Of a stretch of DNA of 64,000 nucleotides, positions 3,564 through 48,564 are shown piece after piece. The stretch's first letter is position 1, and each line of letters starts with the position of its first letter. Where the stretch lies: the sequence record KX011028.1; one strand, written 5' to 3'. The notes under the pieces were generated by a model that worked only from the letters and a program-made list of their open reading frames with translations, was not told the origin of the DNA and searched no databases. The translations under genes and the position numbers were made by a program. Origin of the DNA: Staphylococcus phage pSco-10.

Positions 3564-4532
3564 CTAAACCGAACATGTTTCACATTCAATAACAGAAAGT
3601 TTACGTGAACGTGTATAATATAGTGATTTTAATCCTTGTTCCCAAGCATAGTAGTATAGTGATACTAACTTATTAGTCGGTATCTCTGACTCTACATAAA
3701 GAATAGTAGATACTGCTTGGTCTGTGTGCTTCTGAACTACCGCACTTGTATTAATAATACGTTTATTATCAATCTTATAAGCTGTTTCTCCTTCATAGAA
3801 GAATTGAGTTATAGGACTTAGGTAAGGCATTGGGTAGTATGTCTCCATATCTCCATACTGTCTATTCTCAATAGCACTAGGTACAGGCATAATTGAGCTT
3901 GTAGCATTCTGTACGTATGATATAGATTGAGTAGGTGCTTCGGCTTTTCTATATCCATTATATAATCCATGAATTTTAACTGCTTTAGCCAATTCATCCC
4001 AATCATCTTGAGTTGGAATATAAATTTTACTTAATACTTTCTTAGCTTTTTCTGTTTTAGGTTGGTTAGACTCTCTAATATATCTTACAAAGTATTCACC
4101 TGTAGCATAATCAGATTTTTCAAACCCTTTAAATGGTTTACCTGTTTCTTTAGCCATTAACATAGAAGTTTTAATAGATTGGAAATTAATAGCACTGTAT
4201 AAACTATTTACTAAGTCTAATGCTTCTCTAGAACCGTAACTAATCATATTCTTAGCTAAAAGTCCATGTAAATTCATTGAACCTAAACCGATAGCTCTAA
4301 TGTCATCATTTGCTTTCTGAACACTAGGTAGATATGGTAAATCCATAATATCAGTAACTTTAGTTAATGCTCTTGTTCCGATATCTACAGATTCATTTAA
4401 TAAACCTTTTTCAACTACATTAACTAAATTAAGTGAACCTAATGTACAAACAACATCTCTATTAATAATATTCTTATTGCTGTGTGCATAAGGGTGTATT
4501 TCTGATACCTCTTGTAATTGTGAAATTTCTGT
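3564..4532 (-). CDS. nrdE: ribonucleotide reductase large subunit, exon 3 (C-terminal part)
   Basis: The frame is open upstream of the track ORF back to 4532 and reads TEISQLQEVSEI...VVCTLGSLNL...IGLGSMNLHG...CETCSV; it joins exon 2 (ending MSNLC) to restore the conserved NLC(S/T)EI motif. Confidence 0.85.
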   Translation of the reverse strand, partial: TEISQLQEVSEIHPYAHSNKNIINRDVVCTLGSLNLVNVVEKGLLNESVDIGTRALTKVTDIMDLPYLPSVQKANDDIRAIGLGSMNLHGLLAKNMISYGSREALDLVNSLYSAINFQSIKTSMLMAKETGKPFKGFEKSDYATGEYFVRYIRESNQPKTEKAKKVLSKIYIPTQDDWDELAKAVKIHGLYNGYRKAEAPTQSISYVQNATSSIMPVPSAIENRQYGDMETYYPMPYLSPITQFFYEGETAYKIDNKRIINTSAVVQKHTDQAVSTILYVESEIPTNKLVSLYYYAWEQGLKSLYYTRSRKLSVIECETCSV

Positions 4533-5473
4533 CCTGTATATTCAGTAATGGTCGTTAATCATTACCAGTTCTCTTATGAACTTCCTTATGTTTCCATAAG
4601 TGAGTAGACTATATCATTCTTCCTCTTGGGAAGTCCACCGTTTCGATTTAACAAGGCTTTATACGATTATTACTCGGTACCTTGACCACTTGGCTCTAAC
4701 CTTATCCCTTCACTTATGTGAATAGGTTACAGATAGTCGTTGGGCATTTAATATAAATTGTAATCATTTCTTTTCAAATTTTCTAGGTGTTAACCTTTTA
4801 TACTCAGGGTAATTATCAGAATCTAATCTATAACCAATTGTAGTATGTCCTATACCTAAAGTTCTAGATGCCTCAGATGTGCTCTCATATTTTATACCAT
4901 CTATCTCTATTGCTTTAGAGTTAGCTTTTTTTACAGAGTTTATCATCTTTTCTGTTTTAGGCTTACCGTACTGATGATTTCCTTGACCGCTCATTTGTTG
5001 CTTTCTCATCTCTCTAAGCTCTTCTTTTCGAGGGTTTGTTGTAAATATATCTCCTCCTACGGAAGATAATTTTACATTATAGTAATTATCATCATAAACT
5101 GCATTGGTTTCTAATATTAGTTCTTCCTCATCCTTTTCTAATTCTTCTGTCGTATAGTAATTTTTTATAATTTCTTTAGTAAAATTATTTTTACCATACT
5201 TCTTAATATCTTCTTGTAGATATCTTCCTGAACCTAAGTACTTTTCCCAATCATTTATTCTATTATAAAGAAATTTTCCGATATACTTTTTACCATTTAT
5301 AGAGCATGTAGTTATATAAACAGCTCCGATAGGTTTATTTTCCATAATATCACTCTCCTATGAGTGATTACAATTTATATATTTAGCAACGGATTACCAT
5401 ATCATTTGACGTAGGCTTCCCCGTTTTAGATGGATTTTTCGATAACGATTGCTCGTTAAAGGTGCATTTGTTT
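4533..5473 (-). ncRNA. group I intron (nrdE intron 2) containing a GIY-YIG endonuclease ORF
   Basis: The upstream exon ends in U (..UGU); the intron begins AAACAAAU followed by an internal guide sequence GCAC; an R-like CAACGACUAU and an S-like GAUAUAGUCUAC are present; omega-G at 4533; an in-frame stop lies 5 codons after the 5' splice site. Confidence 0.8.
4764..5345 (-). CDS. intron-encoded GIY-YIG homing endonuclease
   Basis: N-terminal GAVYITTCSINGKKYIGK (GIY...YIG pattern); C-terminal NUMOD-like repeats (GNHQYGKP; YESTSEASRTLGIGHTTIGYRL); Shine-Dalgarno AGGAGAG 8 nt upstream. Confidence 0.85.
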   Translation of the reverse strand: MENKPIGAVYITTCSINGKKYIGKFLYNRINDWEKYLGSGRYLQEDIKKYGKNNFTKEIIKNYYTTEELEKDEEELILETNAVYDDNYYNVKLSSVGGDIFTTNPRKEELREMRKQQMSGQGNHQYGKPKTEKMINSVKKANSKAIEIDGIKYESTSEASRTLGIGHTTIGYRLDSDNYPEYKRLTPRKFEKK

Positions 5474-5899
5474 ACACAAGTTACTCATTTTAACTTTACC
5501 TAAGTTTTTAAGAGGGTGGTTATCATTGGCATTATCAACATAGAATACGTAAGGATAACCTGATTCTAATTGTGTTTTAGCAATATCTGTCATGACTTCT
5601 CTAGCATCATGTTTTACTTTACCAATCTTATCATTAGTTAGTAGTTCTTCGTACCATTCATCAATGTTTAATTCATCTAGATACTTACCATATACTTTAT
5701 TAATATCATAAGTGTCAAAAGTATAGAAAGGTTTGCCTTCTTTAACTAATTCCATAAATTTATTAGGAATTGTAACACCAATAGATAATTTATCTAGTCT
5801 AACTGATTCACTGGCATTAATTTTCTTAGAACTTAATAAATCCAAAATATCATTGTGGAATATGTTTAAGTAAACTGCTCCACTTCCTTGTCTTACTCC
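5474..5899 (-). CDS. nrdE: ribonucleotide reductase large subunit, exon 2
   Basis: Reads GVRQGSGAVYLNIFHNDILDLLSSKK...GYPYVFYVDNAN...MSNLC, which matches the conserved KRRGAGAVYL..HPDI..F and NLC regions of class I RNR; the track ORF 5456..5845 is this exon running on into the intron. Confidence 0.85.
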
Positions 5900-6887
5900 C
5901 AGTTATGTTACGAATAGAATCGTTACTTCTATCCTTCTATATGTCACCATATAAGCTCAGACTATATCATAATCCTAGACGTTACTCTAGAATCCTCTCT
6001 ATTTCCAATCACTTGATTGTACTCTACTCAGTTATATTGCAATAAGCCCTCCCGGCGTAAAGCTCACTTTTCGATAGTCGTTGCACAAAATAACTTACCA
6101 ATTCATTAAATGTTTAAGTTTAACCCATCTTTTCTTACTTTTAATATGGTAGTAAATACTCTCTGTTGCTTTTGGTACTTCAGCTAGTATATAATTCTTG
6201 TCATACCCTTTATTTATCATATCAATTATAAGCTTAGCATCACTTTCAGTTATCGTTTTATCATAATTAACGAGTCCTGATTTATGTGCATGTGTATTAT
6301 TTTCTTCTATGGTACACCATTCTAGATTAAGTACACTATTATTTAATTTATCCCCATCTCTATGATTTATATACTTCTTACTTCTATCATTTTGAGGTAT
6401 AAAAGCCTTAGCTATTAATCTATGTTTAAATAGATACTTATATTTACCATTAACTTTAATTCTAAACTTGTGATAACCTTTTTTAATTTGAGAAGCTACG
6501 ACATAATTAAATTCTGTATTTACTAATCTACCATGATTAGTTATAGAGTAGTTTTTAAACTCTGTCTCTACTAGAATTTCAAAAGGTTCTCTTTTAAACT
6601 CAGGTAATCCCATTTTTACTTTAGTTAAGTTATTTTTATTTCGGTAATTTTGAATAGTTGTTTTAGGTATATCTAACTCTTTAGATAATTCCCTATCAGT
6701 CATAGTTAAATAATTATCTTTAATGAATTTCTGTATTTCTTTGTTTTCAGTTATTTTGCTCATGATTGTCTCCTTTTTTTCTTTTAGTATAGCATAAGTA
6801 TTACTAAAAGTCAAGTTTGGAGAGTTCCCATGAATTAAGAGAGTTTTTTAACCTATAATATCTCTACTATAGGGGGCAGTTTTATTT
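5900..6887 (-). ncRNA. group I intron (nrdE intron 1) containing an HNH endonuclease ORF
   Basis: The exon ends ..CAGGGU; the intron starts AAAUAAAACU with internal guide sequence GCCC; R-like GCAACGACUAUCG and S-like GAUAUAGUCUGAG are present; omega-G at 5900; an in-frame stop lies 1 codon after the 5' splice site. Confidence 0.8.
6095..6763 (-). CDS. intron-encoded HNH homing endonuclease
   Basis: NUMOD4-like YSITNHGRLVN; an HNH region NHRDGDKLNNSVLNLEWCTIEENNTHAHK; an N-terminal helix-turn-helix; the likely start is the ATG at 6763 with AAGGAG 6 nt upstream (the track start at 6814 is a TTG). Confidence 0.8.
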   Translation of the reverse strand: MSKITENKEIQKFIKDNYLTMTDRELSKELDIPKTTIQNYRNKNNLTKVKMGLPEFKREPFEILVETEFKNYSITNHGRLVNTEFNYVVASQIKKGYHKFRIKVNGKYKYLFKHRLIAKAFIPQNDRSKKYINHRDGDKLNNSVLNLEWCTIEENNTHAHKSGLVNYDKTITESDAKLIIDMINKGYDKNYILAEVPKATESIYYHIKSKKRWVKLKHLMNW

Positions 6888-7607
6888 ACCCTGGTCATAA
6901 ATACCTACTTTATGCTCAATAGCTTTAGCAAAAGCAATAACACCTTTACTTGAGTTAGGTCTATTACGTACTGGAGCACCTTTAGGTCTAATTCTAGTTA
7001 AGTCAATTGCAACTCCGCCACCATTAGAACTAGCGTTAGCTACACTATCTTCAACAAAGTTTAGAGACTCAATTGAATCATCTACTACAAATAGGTAACA
7101 TGAACTTAGTTCACCTCTATTGGCTTGTCCTGAGTTATTATACGTAGGTGTAGATGGTTGGAATGTTTGTTCCATAAGTTGTACTAGTAATTCTCTAGCT
7201 TTTACATAATCATTTTGGAATAGATATAAAGCTACTCGAACGTTATGTTGCTCATAATCTTCAACAAAAATAGGTTTCTCATCTTCATCATACTGTTTTG
7301 ATGCATAAGACTCATAAAACTTCTGACCTGCCATGAAACTAGGGAACTTAAAGTTAAAGCTGTAAGCTAACTTAGTCATTTCATCAATAATAGTATCAGG
7401 AACACTATCAAATATCTTATCATAAGTTCCTTCTTCTGTCAATACTCTAATTCTTTCTACTTCACTACTAAATTTTCTTGTGTTATCATCAATATATTTT
7501 AAATACTCATCTAAAGCTTCTTGGTCTTTATAGAGTTTATTTTTTCCATTATCATCTAATTGAGTTATCTCGTTGTTTAACTCAATCCATTTTCCATATG
7601 TTGCCAT
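6888..7607 (-). CDS. nrdE: ribonucleotide reductase large subunit, exon 1 (N-terminal part)
   Basis: N-terminal RNR large-subunit sequence with the SSCYLF loop and GGGVAIDLTRIRPKG, ending ...GIYDQG at the splice site. Joining 6888..7607, 5474..5899 and 3564..4532 gives one continuous 704-aa frame. Confidence 0.85.
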
Positions 7608-46394: not shown

Positions 46395-47399
46395 TTATAG
46401 ATAAATAAATTTATACTTTTTACAATGCTTACTTTTACCTTTTAAAACTTTACTTATATTTGGTGCTGATGCATTAATTAATCTAGCTACTTCATTAACA
46501 GTACCTTCAACTGTTTCACCTGTAACCATATGTGTTCCTTTAATCATTTTCTTTTGGCTTCTTTTACGTGCTTCTTCAGGTGTATATTTGTATTCTTCAT
46601 CTACTAGTCTAAACATTTTGTTATTCAAAGTAAGTCTATCAATATTACCATATAAGTAAGAAGATACCCCTTTTATTCCGGTCTCAATTTCACACTCTTT
46701 AATAGAGTTAAATATAGTTTCTTCATTTTTATCTAAATCATACATAGCTATTGATGTTGTTTTTCTTGGTCTGTTTTTGATACTCTCTTCTTTTTTGATT
46801 CTTCTTGTCTCTACATAAGTCTTTCTTTCTAATTCCTGCTCTTCATTTACTAAACTAAACTTGTATCCTGATGTGGAGTTTAGTTCCCCGATTAAACATT
46901 TGTAAAAATTACTATCTGTAAGTTTATACTTATTGATAATATCATTATAACTACCTGTATATAAATAACGACCATTCTTTGTGTAGACATTAATATCACC
47001 ATCAAATTTTAAAGAAGTAGTGTACACTTCTACTGTATCAGGTTTCTTAATCTCTGTAAAATAGTTTCTTAAAATTTGATATACTTGCTCTAAGGTTTTA
47101 TTTTTATAACTTATATCTATATAAATTATATTATTGTTATCACAATATTCTTTTTTAATTCTATCAAGTAATTTTATTCTATCAAAATCTAAATTGAATA
47201 CTTGTCTATAATGTTGTTCACCCATATATTCAATACAATAAAATTTTCCTTGGTATTCTACTAAAAAATCCATTCTTTGTTTTGTACCTATGTTGTTCCT
47301 AAAAGAATATTCTCGTTTATACTTCATATTATTAAAACCTAAAATTGAATCTACTAATCGTTCCCCATGAGAACCTAGTACTTTATCTGAATATATCAT
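46395..47399 (-). CDS. free-standing homing-endonuclease-like protein: Vsr/PD-(D/E)XK-like nuclease domain plus NUMOD-like DNA-binding repeats
   Basis: N-terminal DFLVEYQGKFYCIEYMGEQHY...DRIKKEYCDNNNIIYIDI fits the Vsr / DUF559-like D...(C)IE.xG.QH pattern; C-terminal FNSIKECEIETGIKGVSSYLYG and VNEVARLINASAPNISKVLKGKSKHCKKYKF are NUMOD-like; ATG at 47399 with GGAAGGTG 6 nt upstream. Confidence 0.6.
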   Translation of the reverse strand: MIYSDKVLGSHGERLVDSILGFNNMKYKREYSFRNNIGTKQRMDFLVEYQGKFYCIEYMGEQHYRQVFNLDFDRIKLLDRIKKEYCDNNNIIYIDISYKNKTLEQVYQILRNYFTEIKKPDTVEVYTTSLKFDGDINVYTKNGRYLYTGSYNDIINKYKLTDSNFYKCLIGELNSTSGYKFSLVNEEQELERKTYVETRRIKKEESIKNRPRKTTSIAMYDLDKNEETIFNSIKECEIETGIKGVSSYLYGNIDRLTLNNKMFRLVDEEYKYTPEEARKRSQKKMIKGTHMVTGETVEGTVNEVARLINASAPNISKVLKGKSKHCKKYKFIYL

Positions 47400-47431: not shown

Positions 47432-47460
47432 AGTGTACCATAACTTTTACACTTTGTCAA
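47432..47460 (-). promoter_or_regulatory. sigma-A promoter (TTGACA, 17 bp spacer, TGgTACACT) driving the endonuclease gene
   Basis: Immediately downstream of the terminator at 47462-47494. Confidence 0.5.
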
Positions 47461-47461
47461 T

Positions 47462-47494
47462 AAAAAAAAGACCTAACTTTTATTGTTAGGTCTT
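47462..47494 (-). terminator. rho-independent terminator ending the tail sheath/tube transcript
   Basis: AAGACCTAAC (aataaaa) GTTAGGTCTT followed by T8 on the minus strand; lies about 20 nt after the predicted tube exon 3 stop. Confidence 0.6.
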
Positions 47495-47517
47495 AATAGG
47501 AAATTTAAGTTCTAGCC

Positions 47518-47531
47518 TTATCTGATGCTGT
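47518..47531 (-). CDS. tail tube protein, inferred exon 3 (last 4 codons plus stop)
   Basis: After the omega-G at 47532 the frame set by exon 2 reads (u)ac agc auc aga uaa (Y S I R stop); placement is by alignment with the 3' end of intron A. An alternative omega-G at 47528 would give SSDKART. Confidence 0.4.
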
Positions 47532-47828
47532 CCTCTATACCCTATCTTTCGATATATTTTAAAGGGAGTAGACTATACCATAATCTTAATGTGTAACTAA
47601 GACTCACTTATTATAGTCGTTGAAGCTTCCCACTCTCGTAGGCTTGCCTGCGTATCATCTATTTTACTGTACTTAGGGTTTAACCTTATACTATACTAGA
47701 TATTTTTTCTGATTTCTCAACATTCAAGCTTACCCTTTCAGGTTACTTTGTAGTTATCTAGTCTTTAAGACTTTCACGCAATTTAAAGTGTTTTCTATGC
47801 TTGTCACCAAACATAGCCTCTATTAGTT
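47532..47828 (-). ncRNA. ORF-less group I intron B in the tail tube gene
   Basis: The exon ends ..CCUUU; the intron starts AACUAAUA with internal guide sequence GAGG (pairs with CUUU using G-U wobbles); a P2-like hairpin; P AAAUUGCGUGAAAG; Q UACGCAGGCAAGCC; R CAACGACUAUAAU; S AAGAUUAUGGUAUAGUCUAC; ends ...GGGUAUAGAGG. Confidence 0.7.
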
Positions 47829-47892
47829 AAAGGTAGCTAAACTCAATTTCTTCTGTTACAATTTCATTTGTCTGCCACGTCTCGTTGTAGTT
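47829..47892 (-). CDS. tail tube protein, inferred exon 2 (64 nt)
   Basis: The only open frame between the two introns: aac uac aac gag acg ugg ... uac cuu u, which reads NYNETWQTNEIVTEEIEFSYL; it starts right after a G (..UAAGUG|) and ends in U. Confidence 0.5.
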
Positions 47893-48225
47893 CACTTATA
47901 CCCTATCTCTCGATATATTTAAAGGGGTTAGACTGTCCCATGTCCCTTATTTCTAAGGTGACTACCTATTACAGTCGTTGAAGCTTCCCACTCTCGTAGG
48001 CTTGCCTGCGGATTTCCTATTGATTGAGTACTTAGGACATTAATAATGTGTCGTTAGTTATTAATGCTTTTATCTCACCATATACTATCCAATTAATTTT
48101 TTCTGATTTCTCAACATTCACGCTTACTCTTTCAAGTTACGTTGTAGTTTAATTGGCTTTAAGGTGTTCCCGCAATTTCAGGTATTATTCGACTATACAT
48201 TACTGTATAGAAGCAACAATTATTT
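47893..48225 (-). ncRNA. ORF-less group I intron A in the tail tube gene
   Basis: The exon ends ..GCCAAU; the intron starts AAAUAAUU with internal guide sequence GUUG (pairs with CAAU, G-U at the splice site); P2 hairpin CUAUAC..GUAUAG; P AAAUUGCGGGAAC; Q AAAUCCGCAGGCAAGCC; R CAACGACUGUAAU; S GGGACAGUCUAAC. The P7 strands are GACUG/CAGUC here versus GACUA/UAGUC in intron B, a compensatory change. An in-frame stop lies 1 codon after the 5' splice site. Confidence 0.75.
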
Positions 48226-48564
48226 ATTGGCACTACATCCGTGGTAACTAATAATAACTTGTTTTGTTAAGTTATCTACTACTAAAATATCAATGATATC
48301 TTTCTTAAGAATTTCTTCACCAAGTGAAGCATATCCTAAATCTGCAAAGTTTTCTTTTTTCATACGTAAACGTTCTACTGTAATTGTACCCTCATAACGT
48401 AAGTATACGTGTTCTTGAGGCATGATAGAACCGATTTCGTATACACCAGTTGTACCATATTCACGAGTACCTGATGCTGATTGTGCTCTTCCTACCGGTT
48501 TACCTTTAATCATAAGTAGGACGGTATTACCAGTATGGACGGTTTGTTTAGCTTCTGATGCCAT
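48226..48564 (-). CDS. putative tail tube protein, exon 1 (113 codons); the track ORF 48220..48564 runs on into the intron to give an artefactual ...SANK stop
   Basis: ORF directly downstream of the sheath gene; its 3' end is followed by the group I intron start motif. Confidence 0.55.

Follow-up and report, generated by a model that had tools for sequence, protein, structure and literature searches.

Two related group I introns, neither with an open reading frame (ORF) of its own, very probably split the 3' end of the tail-tube gene of Staphylococcus phage pSco-10, which is a Kayvirus. The gene is read on the minus strand of a stretch of 64,000 nucleotides (nt) of this phage (KX011028.1), here called the window, and the closest match of the region is Staphylococcus phage SA3, with 99.2% identity. 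A first-pass annotation, made from the sequence alone, had proposed such a pair of introns at this place, and the proposal is now supported by covariance-model (Rfam) matches, covariation in the core helices, pairing between intron guides and exons, and the exact restoration of an intron-less homolog. Anatomy, covariation, guide matching and the restored protein are read directly from the sequences, and from these we infer that the gene is spliced in pSco-10. Interrupted tube genes are known from phages Twort and 812; the insertion sites, the intron family and the nuclease variant described here differ from those of both phages.

Organization of the Interrupted Tail-Tube Gene

In the ORF list, the tube gene appears as an ORF of 114 amino acids (aa) at 48564-48220 (-), which ends ..HGCSANK* and lies just 3' of the 587-aa tail-sheath gene. 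Beyond it come about 700 nt without any ORF longer than 37 aa, in which two copies of a unit of about 300-330 nt stand 63 nt apart. The introns are thus devoid of an endonuclease of their own, in agreement with the term "ORF-less" in the first-pass annotation. A repeat search found direct repeat blocks of 110, 58, 39 and 31 nt at spacings of 358-394 nt and with 72-90% identity. By global alignment the inserts are 77.8% identical across 293 aligned columns, close to the 75% estimated before, and copy 1 contains an insertion of 35 nt. Tandem Repeats Finder did not report the repeat of about 360 nt, presumably because of this divergence and the 35-nt indel.

The 114-aa ORF consists of exon 1 and a single intron codon. 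Exon 1 (48226-48564, minus strand, as are all features of the locus given below) was delimited by the ORF list and a spliced alignment; it has 339 nt, comprises codons 1-113, ends ..GCC AAU, and its product has 99% identity with the tail tube protein of phages K/812 (PDB 8q01) across residues 1-113. Intron 1, placed by Rfam, guide pairing and family alignment, occupies 333 nt (47893-48225) after nt 339 of the coding sequence (CDS). It starts with AAAUAAUU-GUUG, with the guide at 48217-48214, and finishes ..GGGUAUAAGUG, the terminal G being at 47893. The 63 nt of exon 2 (47830-47892) supply 21 codons, NYNETWQTNEIVTEEIEFSYL, colinear with residues 114-134 of the K protein. Intron 2, placed by Rfam and guide pairing, is 298 nt long (47532-47829), follows CDS nt 402, starts with UAACUAAUA-GAGG (guide at 47820-47817) and finishes ..GGGUAUAGAGG, with its terminal G at 47532. 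Exon 3 (47505-47531) is the 27-nt sequence ACA GCA UCA GAU AAG GCU AGA ACU UAA, which reads TASDKART*, the peptide with which the tube protein of intron-less phage K also ends. The frame closes 8 codons past intron 2 and 10 nt before the stem of an intrinsic terminator (47468-47494; terminator scan) with a 10-bp stem and a T run, which aligns with the terminator annotated 3' of the K tube gene.

All sequence landmarks quoted in the first-pass annotation were located on the minus strand, including the 114-aa ORF, the compensatory pair in the P7 helix, the open frame of 63-64 nt, the strong terminator, and the quoted motifs resembling the conserved elements P (AAAUUGCGGGAA and AAAUUGCGUGAA), Q (CCGCAGGCAAGCC), R (CAACGACUGUAAU and CAACGACUAUAAU) and S (CAGUCUAAC and UAGUCUAC). 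Its description of the gene's end was less accurate, in that closure had been expected within 4 codons and about 20 nt before the terminator, and the 3' limit of the region, drawn at 47518, belongs at the real stop codon, at 47505.

Splice Sites and the Predicted Protein

The tube gene of phage K is a continuous ORF of 429 nt encoding 142 aa, ..HGCSANNYNETWQTNEIVTEEIEFSYLTASDKART*, and since intron-less relatives of this kind display the uninterrupted frame, the splice junctions can be settled by comparison. Excision of 48225-47893 and 47829-47532 gives a 429-nt ORF for 142 aa, ..SYLTASDKART, which differs from the K protein at a single residue (T33 vs Q33) and has the C-terminal peptide ..NYNETWQTNEIVTEEIEFSYLTASDK... 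Its junctions read ..CSAN|NYNETWQTNEIVTEEIEFSYL|TASDKART, and it aligns with the phage 812 tail tube in the PDB (8q01 and related entries) over residues 1-135. For a 142-aa homolog, TmpA, a mass of about 15.9 kDa has been published (PMC5618024). All intron-less homologs, whether from Staphylococcus, Listeria, Enterococcus or Bacillus phages, have 140-143 aa, so that the comparison with such homologs, proposed along with the first-pass annotation, comes out in favor of its intron claim. The product of about 138 aa that it predicted does not stand; that product ends ..LYSIR* in a shifted frame because the second 5' splice site had been set one nt off, whereas the correct protein of 142 aa ends ..EFSYLTASDKART*, like that of phage K.

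Both introns follow an exon that ends in U and have G as their last nucleotide; no other positions give back the K protein, save for one alternative at junction 2 that is weighed below. At junction 1, ..GCCAAU|AAAUAAUU-GUUG, the guide GUUG pairs with the exon sequence CAAU and leaves a U.G pair at the splice site; both this guide and the junction ..GCCAAU|AACUAC.. had been predicted correctly. At junction 2, the exon ends ..UACCUU, the intron begins UAACUAAUA-GAGG, and the guide pairs with CCUU, the U.G pair being on the last U. Here the guide GAGG had been recognized before, and the splice site had been placed 1 nt too far 3', after ..ACCUUU; that junction is rejected, as it takes the frame out of the conserved C-terminus.

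The sequence of the small exons points to their translation. Exons 2 and 3 differ from phage K at 15 of 90 nt (7 in exon 2 and 8 in exon 3), all of the changes are synonymous, and the exact K peptide is nevertheless kept, which indicates purifying selection on translation.

The proposed course of events is that of a conventional group I system. One pre-mRNA would span the tube gene from its start codon through the terminator (47494-47468), and each intron would fold in it as a P1-P9 ribozyme, whose 4-nt internal guide would pair with the last four exon nt and form the U.G wobble at the 5' splice site. Transesterification initiated by guanosine, followed by attack at the terminal G, would ligate the exons and yield an mRNA for the normal 142-aa tube protein.

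RNA Structure and Covariation

A scan of the minus strand with the Rfam Intron_gpI model (RF00028), a check suggested with the first-pass annotation and limited here to the region, matched both inserts on the coding strand. The match at 47839-47550 (intron 2) scores 50.7 bits (E = 1.4e-11; gathering score 50), and the match at 48244-47909 (intron 1) scores 31 bits (E = 1.1e-5); agreement of this degree lies well beyond chance.

For comparative analysis, homologous inserts were gathered from other Twortvirinae tube genes (80 IMG/VR loci together with GenBank records), and their boundaries were mapped by a spliced aligner under the rule that the exon must end in U and the intron in G. Thirteen non-redundant members of the intron family of the window were aligned with MAFFT, and a structure comprising P2-P9 and the P3/P7 pseudoknot was specified by hand. 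In this structure, 95.1% of 917 cells are paired, and two-sided changes occur in 38 of 73 pairs; in controls with the 3' partners shifted by 1-3 columns, the corresponding figures are 34-42% and 3-8 pairs. None of 500 shuffles reached the observed covariation score. P2, P6a and P8 are partly mis-registered in the alignment, and their counts are therefore underestimates. P3, P4, P5 and P7 are each 100% paired and show compensatory changes between the two copies of the window, namely UACCU/AGGUA vs CACUU/AAGUG in P3, UGCGGG/UCCGCA vs UGCGUG/UACGCA in P4, and GACUG/CAGUC vs GACUA/UAGUC in P7. Every core helix of intron 1 is retained in the family alignment. Independently of the hand-made structure, RNAalifold recovered P1, P2, P4, P5 with a four-helix extension, P6/P6a, P7, P8 and the P9 hairpin from a five-sequence subset, with 30 of 83 pairs compensatory.

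P1 was examined by a separate script, since its register varies between sites in the alignment. With its own exon, each of the 23 distinct intron/site combinations forms a P1 of 4 bp or more anchored on the U.G pair, whereas only 25% of cross-site pairings reach this length.

The P7.1/P7.2 hairpins are present in neither intron of the window, where only 4 nt (UAAU) separate P7 (GACUR) from P3'. Membership in subgroup IA2, to which typical phage introns including Twort orf142-I2 and I3 belong, is therefore rejected. By inspection, a distant family member (locus L086), whose tube locus is most like the tube genes of Bacillus phages, has two hairpins between P7 and P3'.

Insertion Sites and Known Interrupted Tube Genes

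Across the relatives, the tube gene is interrupted at no fewer than 12 positions within about 80 nt (CDS nt 328, 339, 345, 355, 366, 374, 382, 386, 391, 397, 402 and 409), and in-silico splicing gives a full-length tube protein in each clearly resolved case. The intron family of the window is found at four of these positions with a matching guide at each: at site 328 the exon ends GGUU and the guide is GACC, at site 339 they are CAAU and GUUG, at site 366 GAAU and GUUC, and at site 402 CCUU and GAGG. One intron family would thus have been retargeted to at least these four sites through changes of the guide. Intron 339 is the sole tube-gene intron in phages vB_Sau_CG and KMSP1, and intron 402 has other partners elsewhere, being accompanied by an intron at 328 in Romulus and by one at 374 in locus L016. 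As introns 339 and 402 thus occur without each other in an essential gene, each presumably splices unaided.

Several intron families share the hotspot, and their hosts are Staphylococcus phages and distant relatives with tube genes most like those of Bacillus phages. Among loci L001-L097, up to three introns occur in one tube gene (Twort, T2-102, L019 and L025). In phage vB_SauM-T-SE-E4 (locus L092), the intron at site 402 is 352 nt long and contains a 54-nt internal duplication in the P5 extension, the sequence of which matches the corresponding part of intron 1; this suggests recombination between two tandem introns.

The likeness to Twort that the first-pass annotation had pointed out is confirmed, as the tail-tube gene of Twort is orf142 (PMC11878797). 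According to two papers that cite Landthaler & Shub 1999 (PMC11878797, PMC10136302), this gene has three self-splicing group I introns with exon skipping, as shown in 1999. In the Twort genome, the sheath gene precedes a truncated tube ORF, after which come "non-coding" DNA of about 1 kb and an "intron encoded nuclease" (TwortORF018). The two systems share the gene, the location of multiple short ORF-less introns in its 3'-terminal region, the very short exons between them, and a nuclease gene directly downstream. They differ in the number of introns (three vs two in the window) and in the sites, which are 345, 386 and 409 in Twort, the third being deduced from a published 23-nt exon, vs 339 and 402 in the window. 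Moreover, Twort introns 2 and 3 are of about 252 nt and belong to subgroup IA2, whereas those of the window have 298-333 nt, a long P5 extension and no P7.1/P7.2. Finally, splicing was demonstrated experimentally in Twort and is deduced from sequence in pSco-10.

Phage 812 belongs to the same genus as pSco-10 and has two non-coding introns in the same gene, with an adjacent nuclease gene (Botka 2019, PMC6445280). Interrupted tube genes have been documented in the Kayviruses 812, A3R, 676Z, Fi200W and P4W (PMC6445280), and we found the 812-type interrupted gene also in PM36 and JS1. Like the window, the 812 type combines two ORF-less introns with a free-standing nuclease gene of the same PHROG immediately downstream; unlike the window, its introns are at sites 355 and 391 rather than 339 and 402, and they belong to different sequence families. 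A search with nhmmer found no relation of the introns of the window to the Twort or 812 tube introns.

The first tube intron of 812, PM36 and JS1 (site 355, 305 nt; L007 2855-3160, L097 ~1992-2296) has a strong P1 of 7 bp (GAGACAU/GUGUCUC) and a strong P10 of 6 bp (GGCAGA/UCUGCU). To restore ..NETWQT.., its 3' splice site has to come after an A (..AAUAACA|GGCAGA) and not after the canonical terminal G, and G-terminated alternatives either lose Trp119 or shift the frame. The spliced 812 tube gene has been listed as 426 nt, one codon less than that of K (Botka 2019, PMC6445280).

The Downstream Nuclease Gene and Possible Intron Mobility

A free-standing gene for a homing-endonuclease-like protein of 334 aa (46395-47399, ATG at 47399; PHROG 7140 and fold comparison) begins about 105 nt 3' of exon 3, past the terminator and a promoter-like site (47432-47460). 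The latter consists of TTGACA, 17 nt and TACACT, with a TG upstream of the second hexamer, and is a consensus match only (10/12). Phage K does not have the nuclease gene and aligns across the gap from 47455 to 46335.

The protein matches PHROG 7140, "intron encoded nuclease" (E = 1e-99), and combines an EDxHD/Vsr-like nuclease domain at the N-terminus, with an I-Bth0305I/Vsr-like fold, and three NUMOD/I-HmuI-like repeats for DNA binding. Pfam detects just the C-terminal I-HmuI NUMOD-like module, and the protein has no sequence-level match in the PDB. A homologous-protein search with the N-terminal 130 aa alone gave zero hits, while the full-length query found homologs. Among 13 of these nucleases, E13, E30, D44, E57, Q62, H63 and D79 are invariant, as candidates for the E-D-x-H-D catalytic residues. 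An N-terminal core of about 115 aa is common to the nuclease of the window, the PM36/812-type nuclease and TwortORF018; the first two are 35% identical overall, and TwortORF018 is 38% identical to the window protein in the core. The nuclease of the window is shorter than these relatives (334 aa vs 467 aa in the 812 type or 437 aa). It shares the Vsr-like catalytic fold with I-Bth0305I of the EDxHD family (PDB 3r3p) but differs from it in having 19% identity, a free-standing rather than intron-encoded gene, and a DNA-binding region of I-HmuI-like NUMOD repeats.

Several features of the locus would fit mobility of the introns. Intron 2 matches an intron of Romulus/Remus, which belong to a different genus, Silviavirus, at every one of its 298 nt (100.0% identity). 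Exon 3 is likewise 100% and exon 2 98.4% identical to these phages, whereas identity is about 85% in nt 1-300 of the tube exon and 78% at the 3' end of the sheath gene. Conversely, identity to intron-less K is about 97.7% in nt 1-300 but much lower farther on, with 71.8% in the 39-nt segment that leads up to site 339 (nt 301-339), 88.9% for exon 2 and 70.4% for exon 3; the 26 differences from K in these three segments are synonymous throughout. The introns would leave such a pattern if they had been imported along with co-converted exon flanks from a divergent donor. In addition, a homolog of the nuclease core is present downstream of 13 of 19 interrupted tube genes, as opposed to 5 of 48 uninterrupted ones (67 distinct loci with sufficient downstream sequence, Fisher p = 5e-6, uncorrected for phylogeny).

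In view of the adjacent nuclease, the identity of intron 2 across genera and the apparently co-converted exons, the introns may have been spread in trans by the downstream EDxHD/Vsr-like nuclease, for which we consider the chances evenly balanced with regard to both its target and its role in mobility. The nuclease would cut intron-less tube alleles in a mixed infection, and in the ensuing repair the nuclease gene would be copied along with the introns and the exon sequence at their flanks, as the model of trans or "collaborative" homing has it (review: PMC3984707). The locus resembles collaborative homing systems in that ORF-less introns adjoin a free-standing homing endonuclease gene, the flanking exons look co-converted, and the presences of the two are correlated. 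It differs from the collaborative system of F-CphI, in which the enzyme is Endo VII-like rather than EDxHD/Vsr-like; it also differs in that one nuclease gene accompanies two introns and that many alternative sites are used across relatives.

Two observations weigh against such a role for the nuclease: 6 of the 19 interrupted genes, including Romulus-type loci, have no downstream nuclease gene, and 5 uninterrupted tube genes do have one. They keep alive the rival view that the nuclease is an independent selfish element, engaged in intron-less homing or acting at recombination boundaries, and that the introns spread by general recombination or reverse splicing. We regard this view as the less probable of the two, though one to be taken seriously. 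Reverse splicing or mutation of the guide accounts more easily for retargeting to four sites than a site-specific DNA endonuclease does, and phage nuclease genes often mark the boundaries of genetic exchange (PMC10448857). An independent element does not readily account, however, for the strong association between interruption and nuclease, for the joint loss of tube introns and nuclease gene in 812 mutants (PMC6445280), or for the co-conversion-like exon tracts next to a nuclease gene that starts so soon after the last exon.

The five uninterrupted cases (loci L030, L032, L033, L036 and L073) have a tube gene of 140-141 aa and the nuclease-core homolog within about 1-1.6 kb downstream. They could be the result of intron-less homing of the nuclease gene or of intron loss.

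Alternative Readings of the Inserts

Splicing of real introns might not be purely constitutive. Since exon 2 is exactly 63 nt long, joining of the 5' site of intron 1 to the 3' site of intron 2 would stay in frame and give a 121-aa product, ..CSAN|TASDKART. Exon skipping of this kind, between the similar tandem introns 2 and 3, is documented for Twort orf142 (PMC10136302, PMC11878797). The introns of the window are 78% identical with near-identical cores, and P6 and P7 are completely paired in a hybrid that joins the 5' half of intron 1 to the 3' half of intron 2. The same hybrid would, however, gain one mismatch each in P3, P4 and P5, and the guides differ, and engineering work indicates that such differences suppress skipping (PMC10136302). 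As the skipped tube protein would also be deprived of 21 core residues and has no evident function, we consider occasional skipping improbable in pSco-10.

A more far-reaching synthesis can be offered only tentatively, and it is rather doubtful as a whole: the last 80 nt or so of the Herelleviridae tube gene may be an exceptional hotspot, in which one ORF-less family was retargeted to at least four sites by the 4-nt guide change alone, cassettes were moved between genera in trans by an EDxHD-type endonuclease, and the 63-nt exon also allows in-frame skipping to the 121-aa isoform.

As for the presence of two functional introns itself, some results weigh against it. Intron 1 scores below the Rfam gathering threshold (31 vs 50 bits), although the match is significant, and scans of the whole 64-kb window returned zero hits in both gathering and E-value modes. 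Scans of sub-regions of 1.4-2.3 kb recover all four group I introns of the window, however, and the empty whole-window scans are therefore regarded as artefacts of the speed filters and not as absence. The filter effect is probably also behind the failure of annotation pipelines to notice these introns, and negative whole-genome Rfam scans for group I introns should not be trusted. P1 is merely 4 bp in both introns, and the P10 pairing is weak on inspection. Lastly, an alternative for junction 2 lies 1 nt upstream (..ACCU|UUAAC...GAG|GACA), conforms to the U/G rules and leaves the protein unchanged. This alternative is disfavored, as it would place U-A instead of U.G at the site and break the homology with sister introns, such as that of Romulus at 328 (..GGUU|UAACUAAAUA-GACC); owing to the U.G wobble and this homology, 47830|47829 is preferred.

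That the inserts are splicing-dead intron remnants or a plain tandem repeat, and that the real tube protein has 114 aa, would agree with the GenBank records examined, which annotate just the 114-aa (or 112/118-aa) ORF, with the truncated tube protein modelled for phage JS1 in one published study (PMC12977511) and with the low Rfam score of intron 1, but this is very hard to maintain, given the exact K peptide kept in exons 2 and 3 despite their synonymous divergence, the RNA helices kept by compensatory changes, the guides that track the insertion sites, the uniform length of the intron-less homologs, and the C-terminal residues that belong to the solved 812 tube protein.

Annotation of Interrupted Tube Genes

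The presence of two introns has consequences for the records of related phages. Introns of the window type are unannotated in all examined records that bear them (SA3, HN01, CG, KMSP1, Romulus, BE25 and T-SE-E4), unlike those of PM36, which are of the 812 type and are annotated as Intron_gpI. The database records of this phage type that we examined list a truncated "tail tube", "capsid" or "hypothetical" protein of 112-118 aa. Predicted promoters or small opposite-strand CDSs lie inside the introns in Romulus (L005, 1104-1252), BE25 (L091, 761-942) and T-SE-E4 (L092, 578-862), and exon 1 of these three phages is labelled 'capsid protein', 'virion structural protein' or 'hypothetical protein'. 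These internal features and labels are probably artefacts of unrecognised introns.

A structural study may have been affected as well. In a paper on phage JS1 (mBio 2026, PMC12977511), the tail tube was modelled from the annotated 118-aa ORF, and what was called a distinct truncation at the C-terminus, with strands beta9 and beta10 missing, was discussed as a feature of the curved tail. The JS1 locus (L097, PQ849840.1 16449-17582) has an 812-type interrupted tube gene, whose introns are at 355 and 391 and behind which lies an 'intron encoded nuclease', and in-silico splicing restores ..NETWQTNEIVTEEIE... The truncation is probably an artefact of annotation without splicing, because the full C-terminus is encoded in the downstream exons of the interrupted gene.

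Kayviruses are leading agents of phage therapy, and in pSco-10 an essential late structural gene would rely on two ribozymes, beside a mobile nuclease that apparently drives exchange between genera. This has a bearing on phage engineering, on recombination between therapeutic phages and on the spread of ORF-less introns.

The window contains a second gene of this kind, nrdE (minus strand, 3564-7607), which is divided into three coding pieces at 6882-7607, 5456-5845 and 3564-4346. The two introns that the first-pass annotation had noted there were recovered in a regional scan as Rfam Intron_gpI matches of 38.3 and 23.5 bits. They are linked by nhmmer to the 345-type and 391/409-type tube introns rather than to the tube introns of the window, and an endonuclease ORF is present in each of them, one of the HNH_3 type at 6095-6814 and one that is GIY-YIG/I-TevI-like at 4764-5345.

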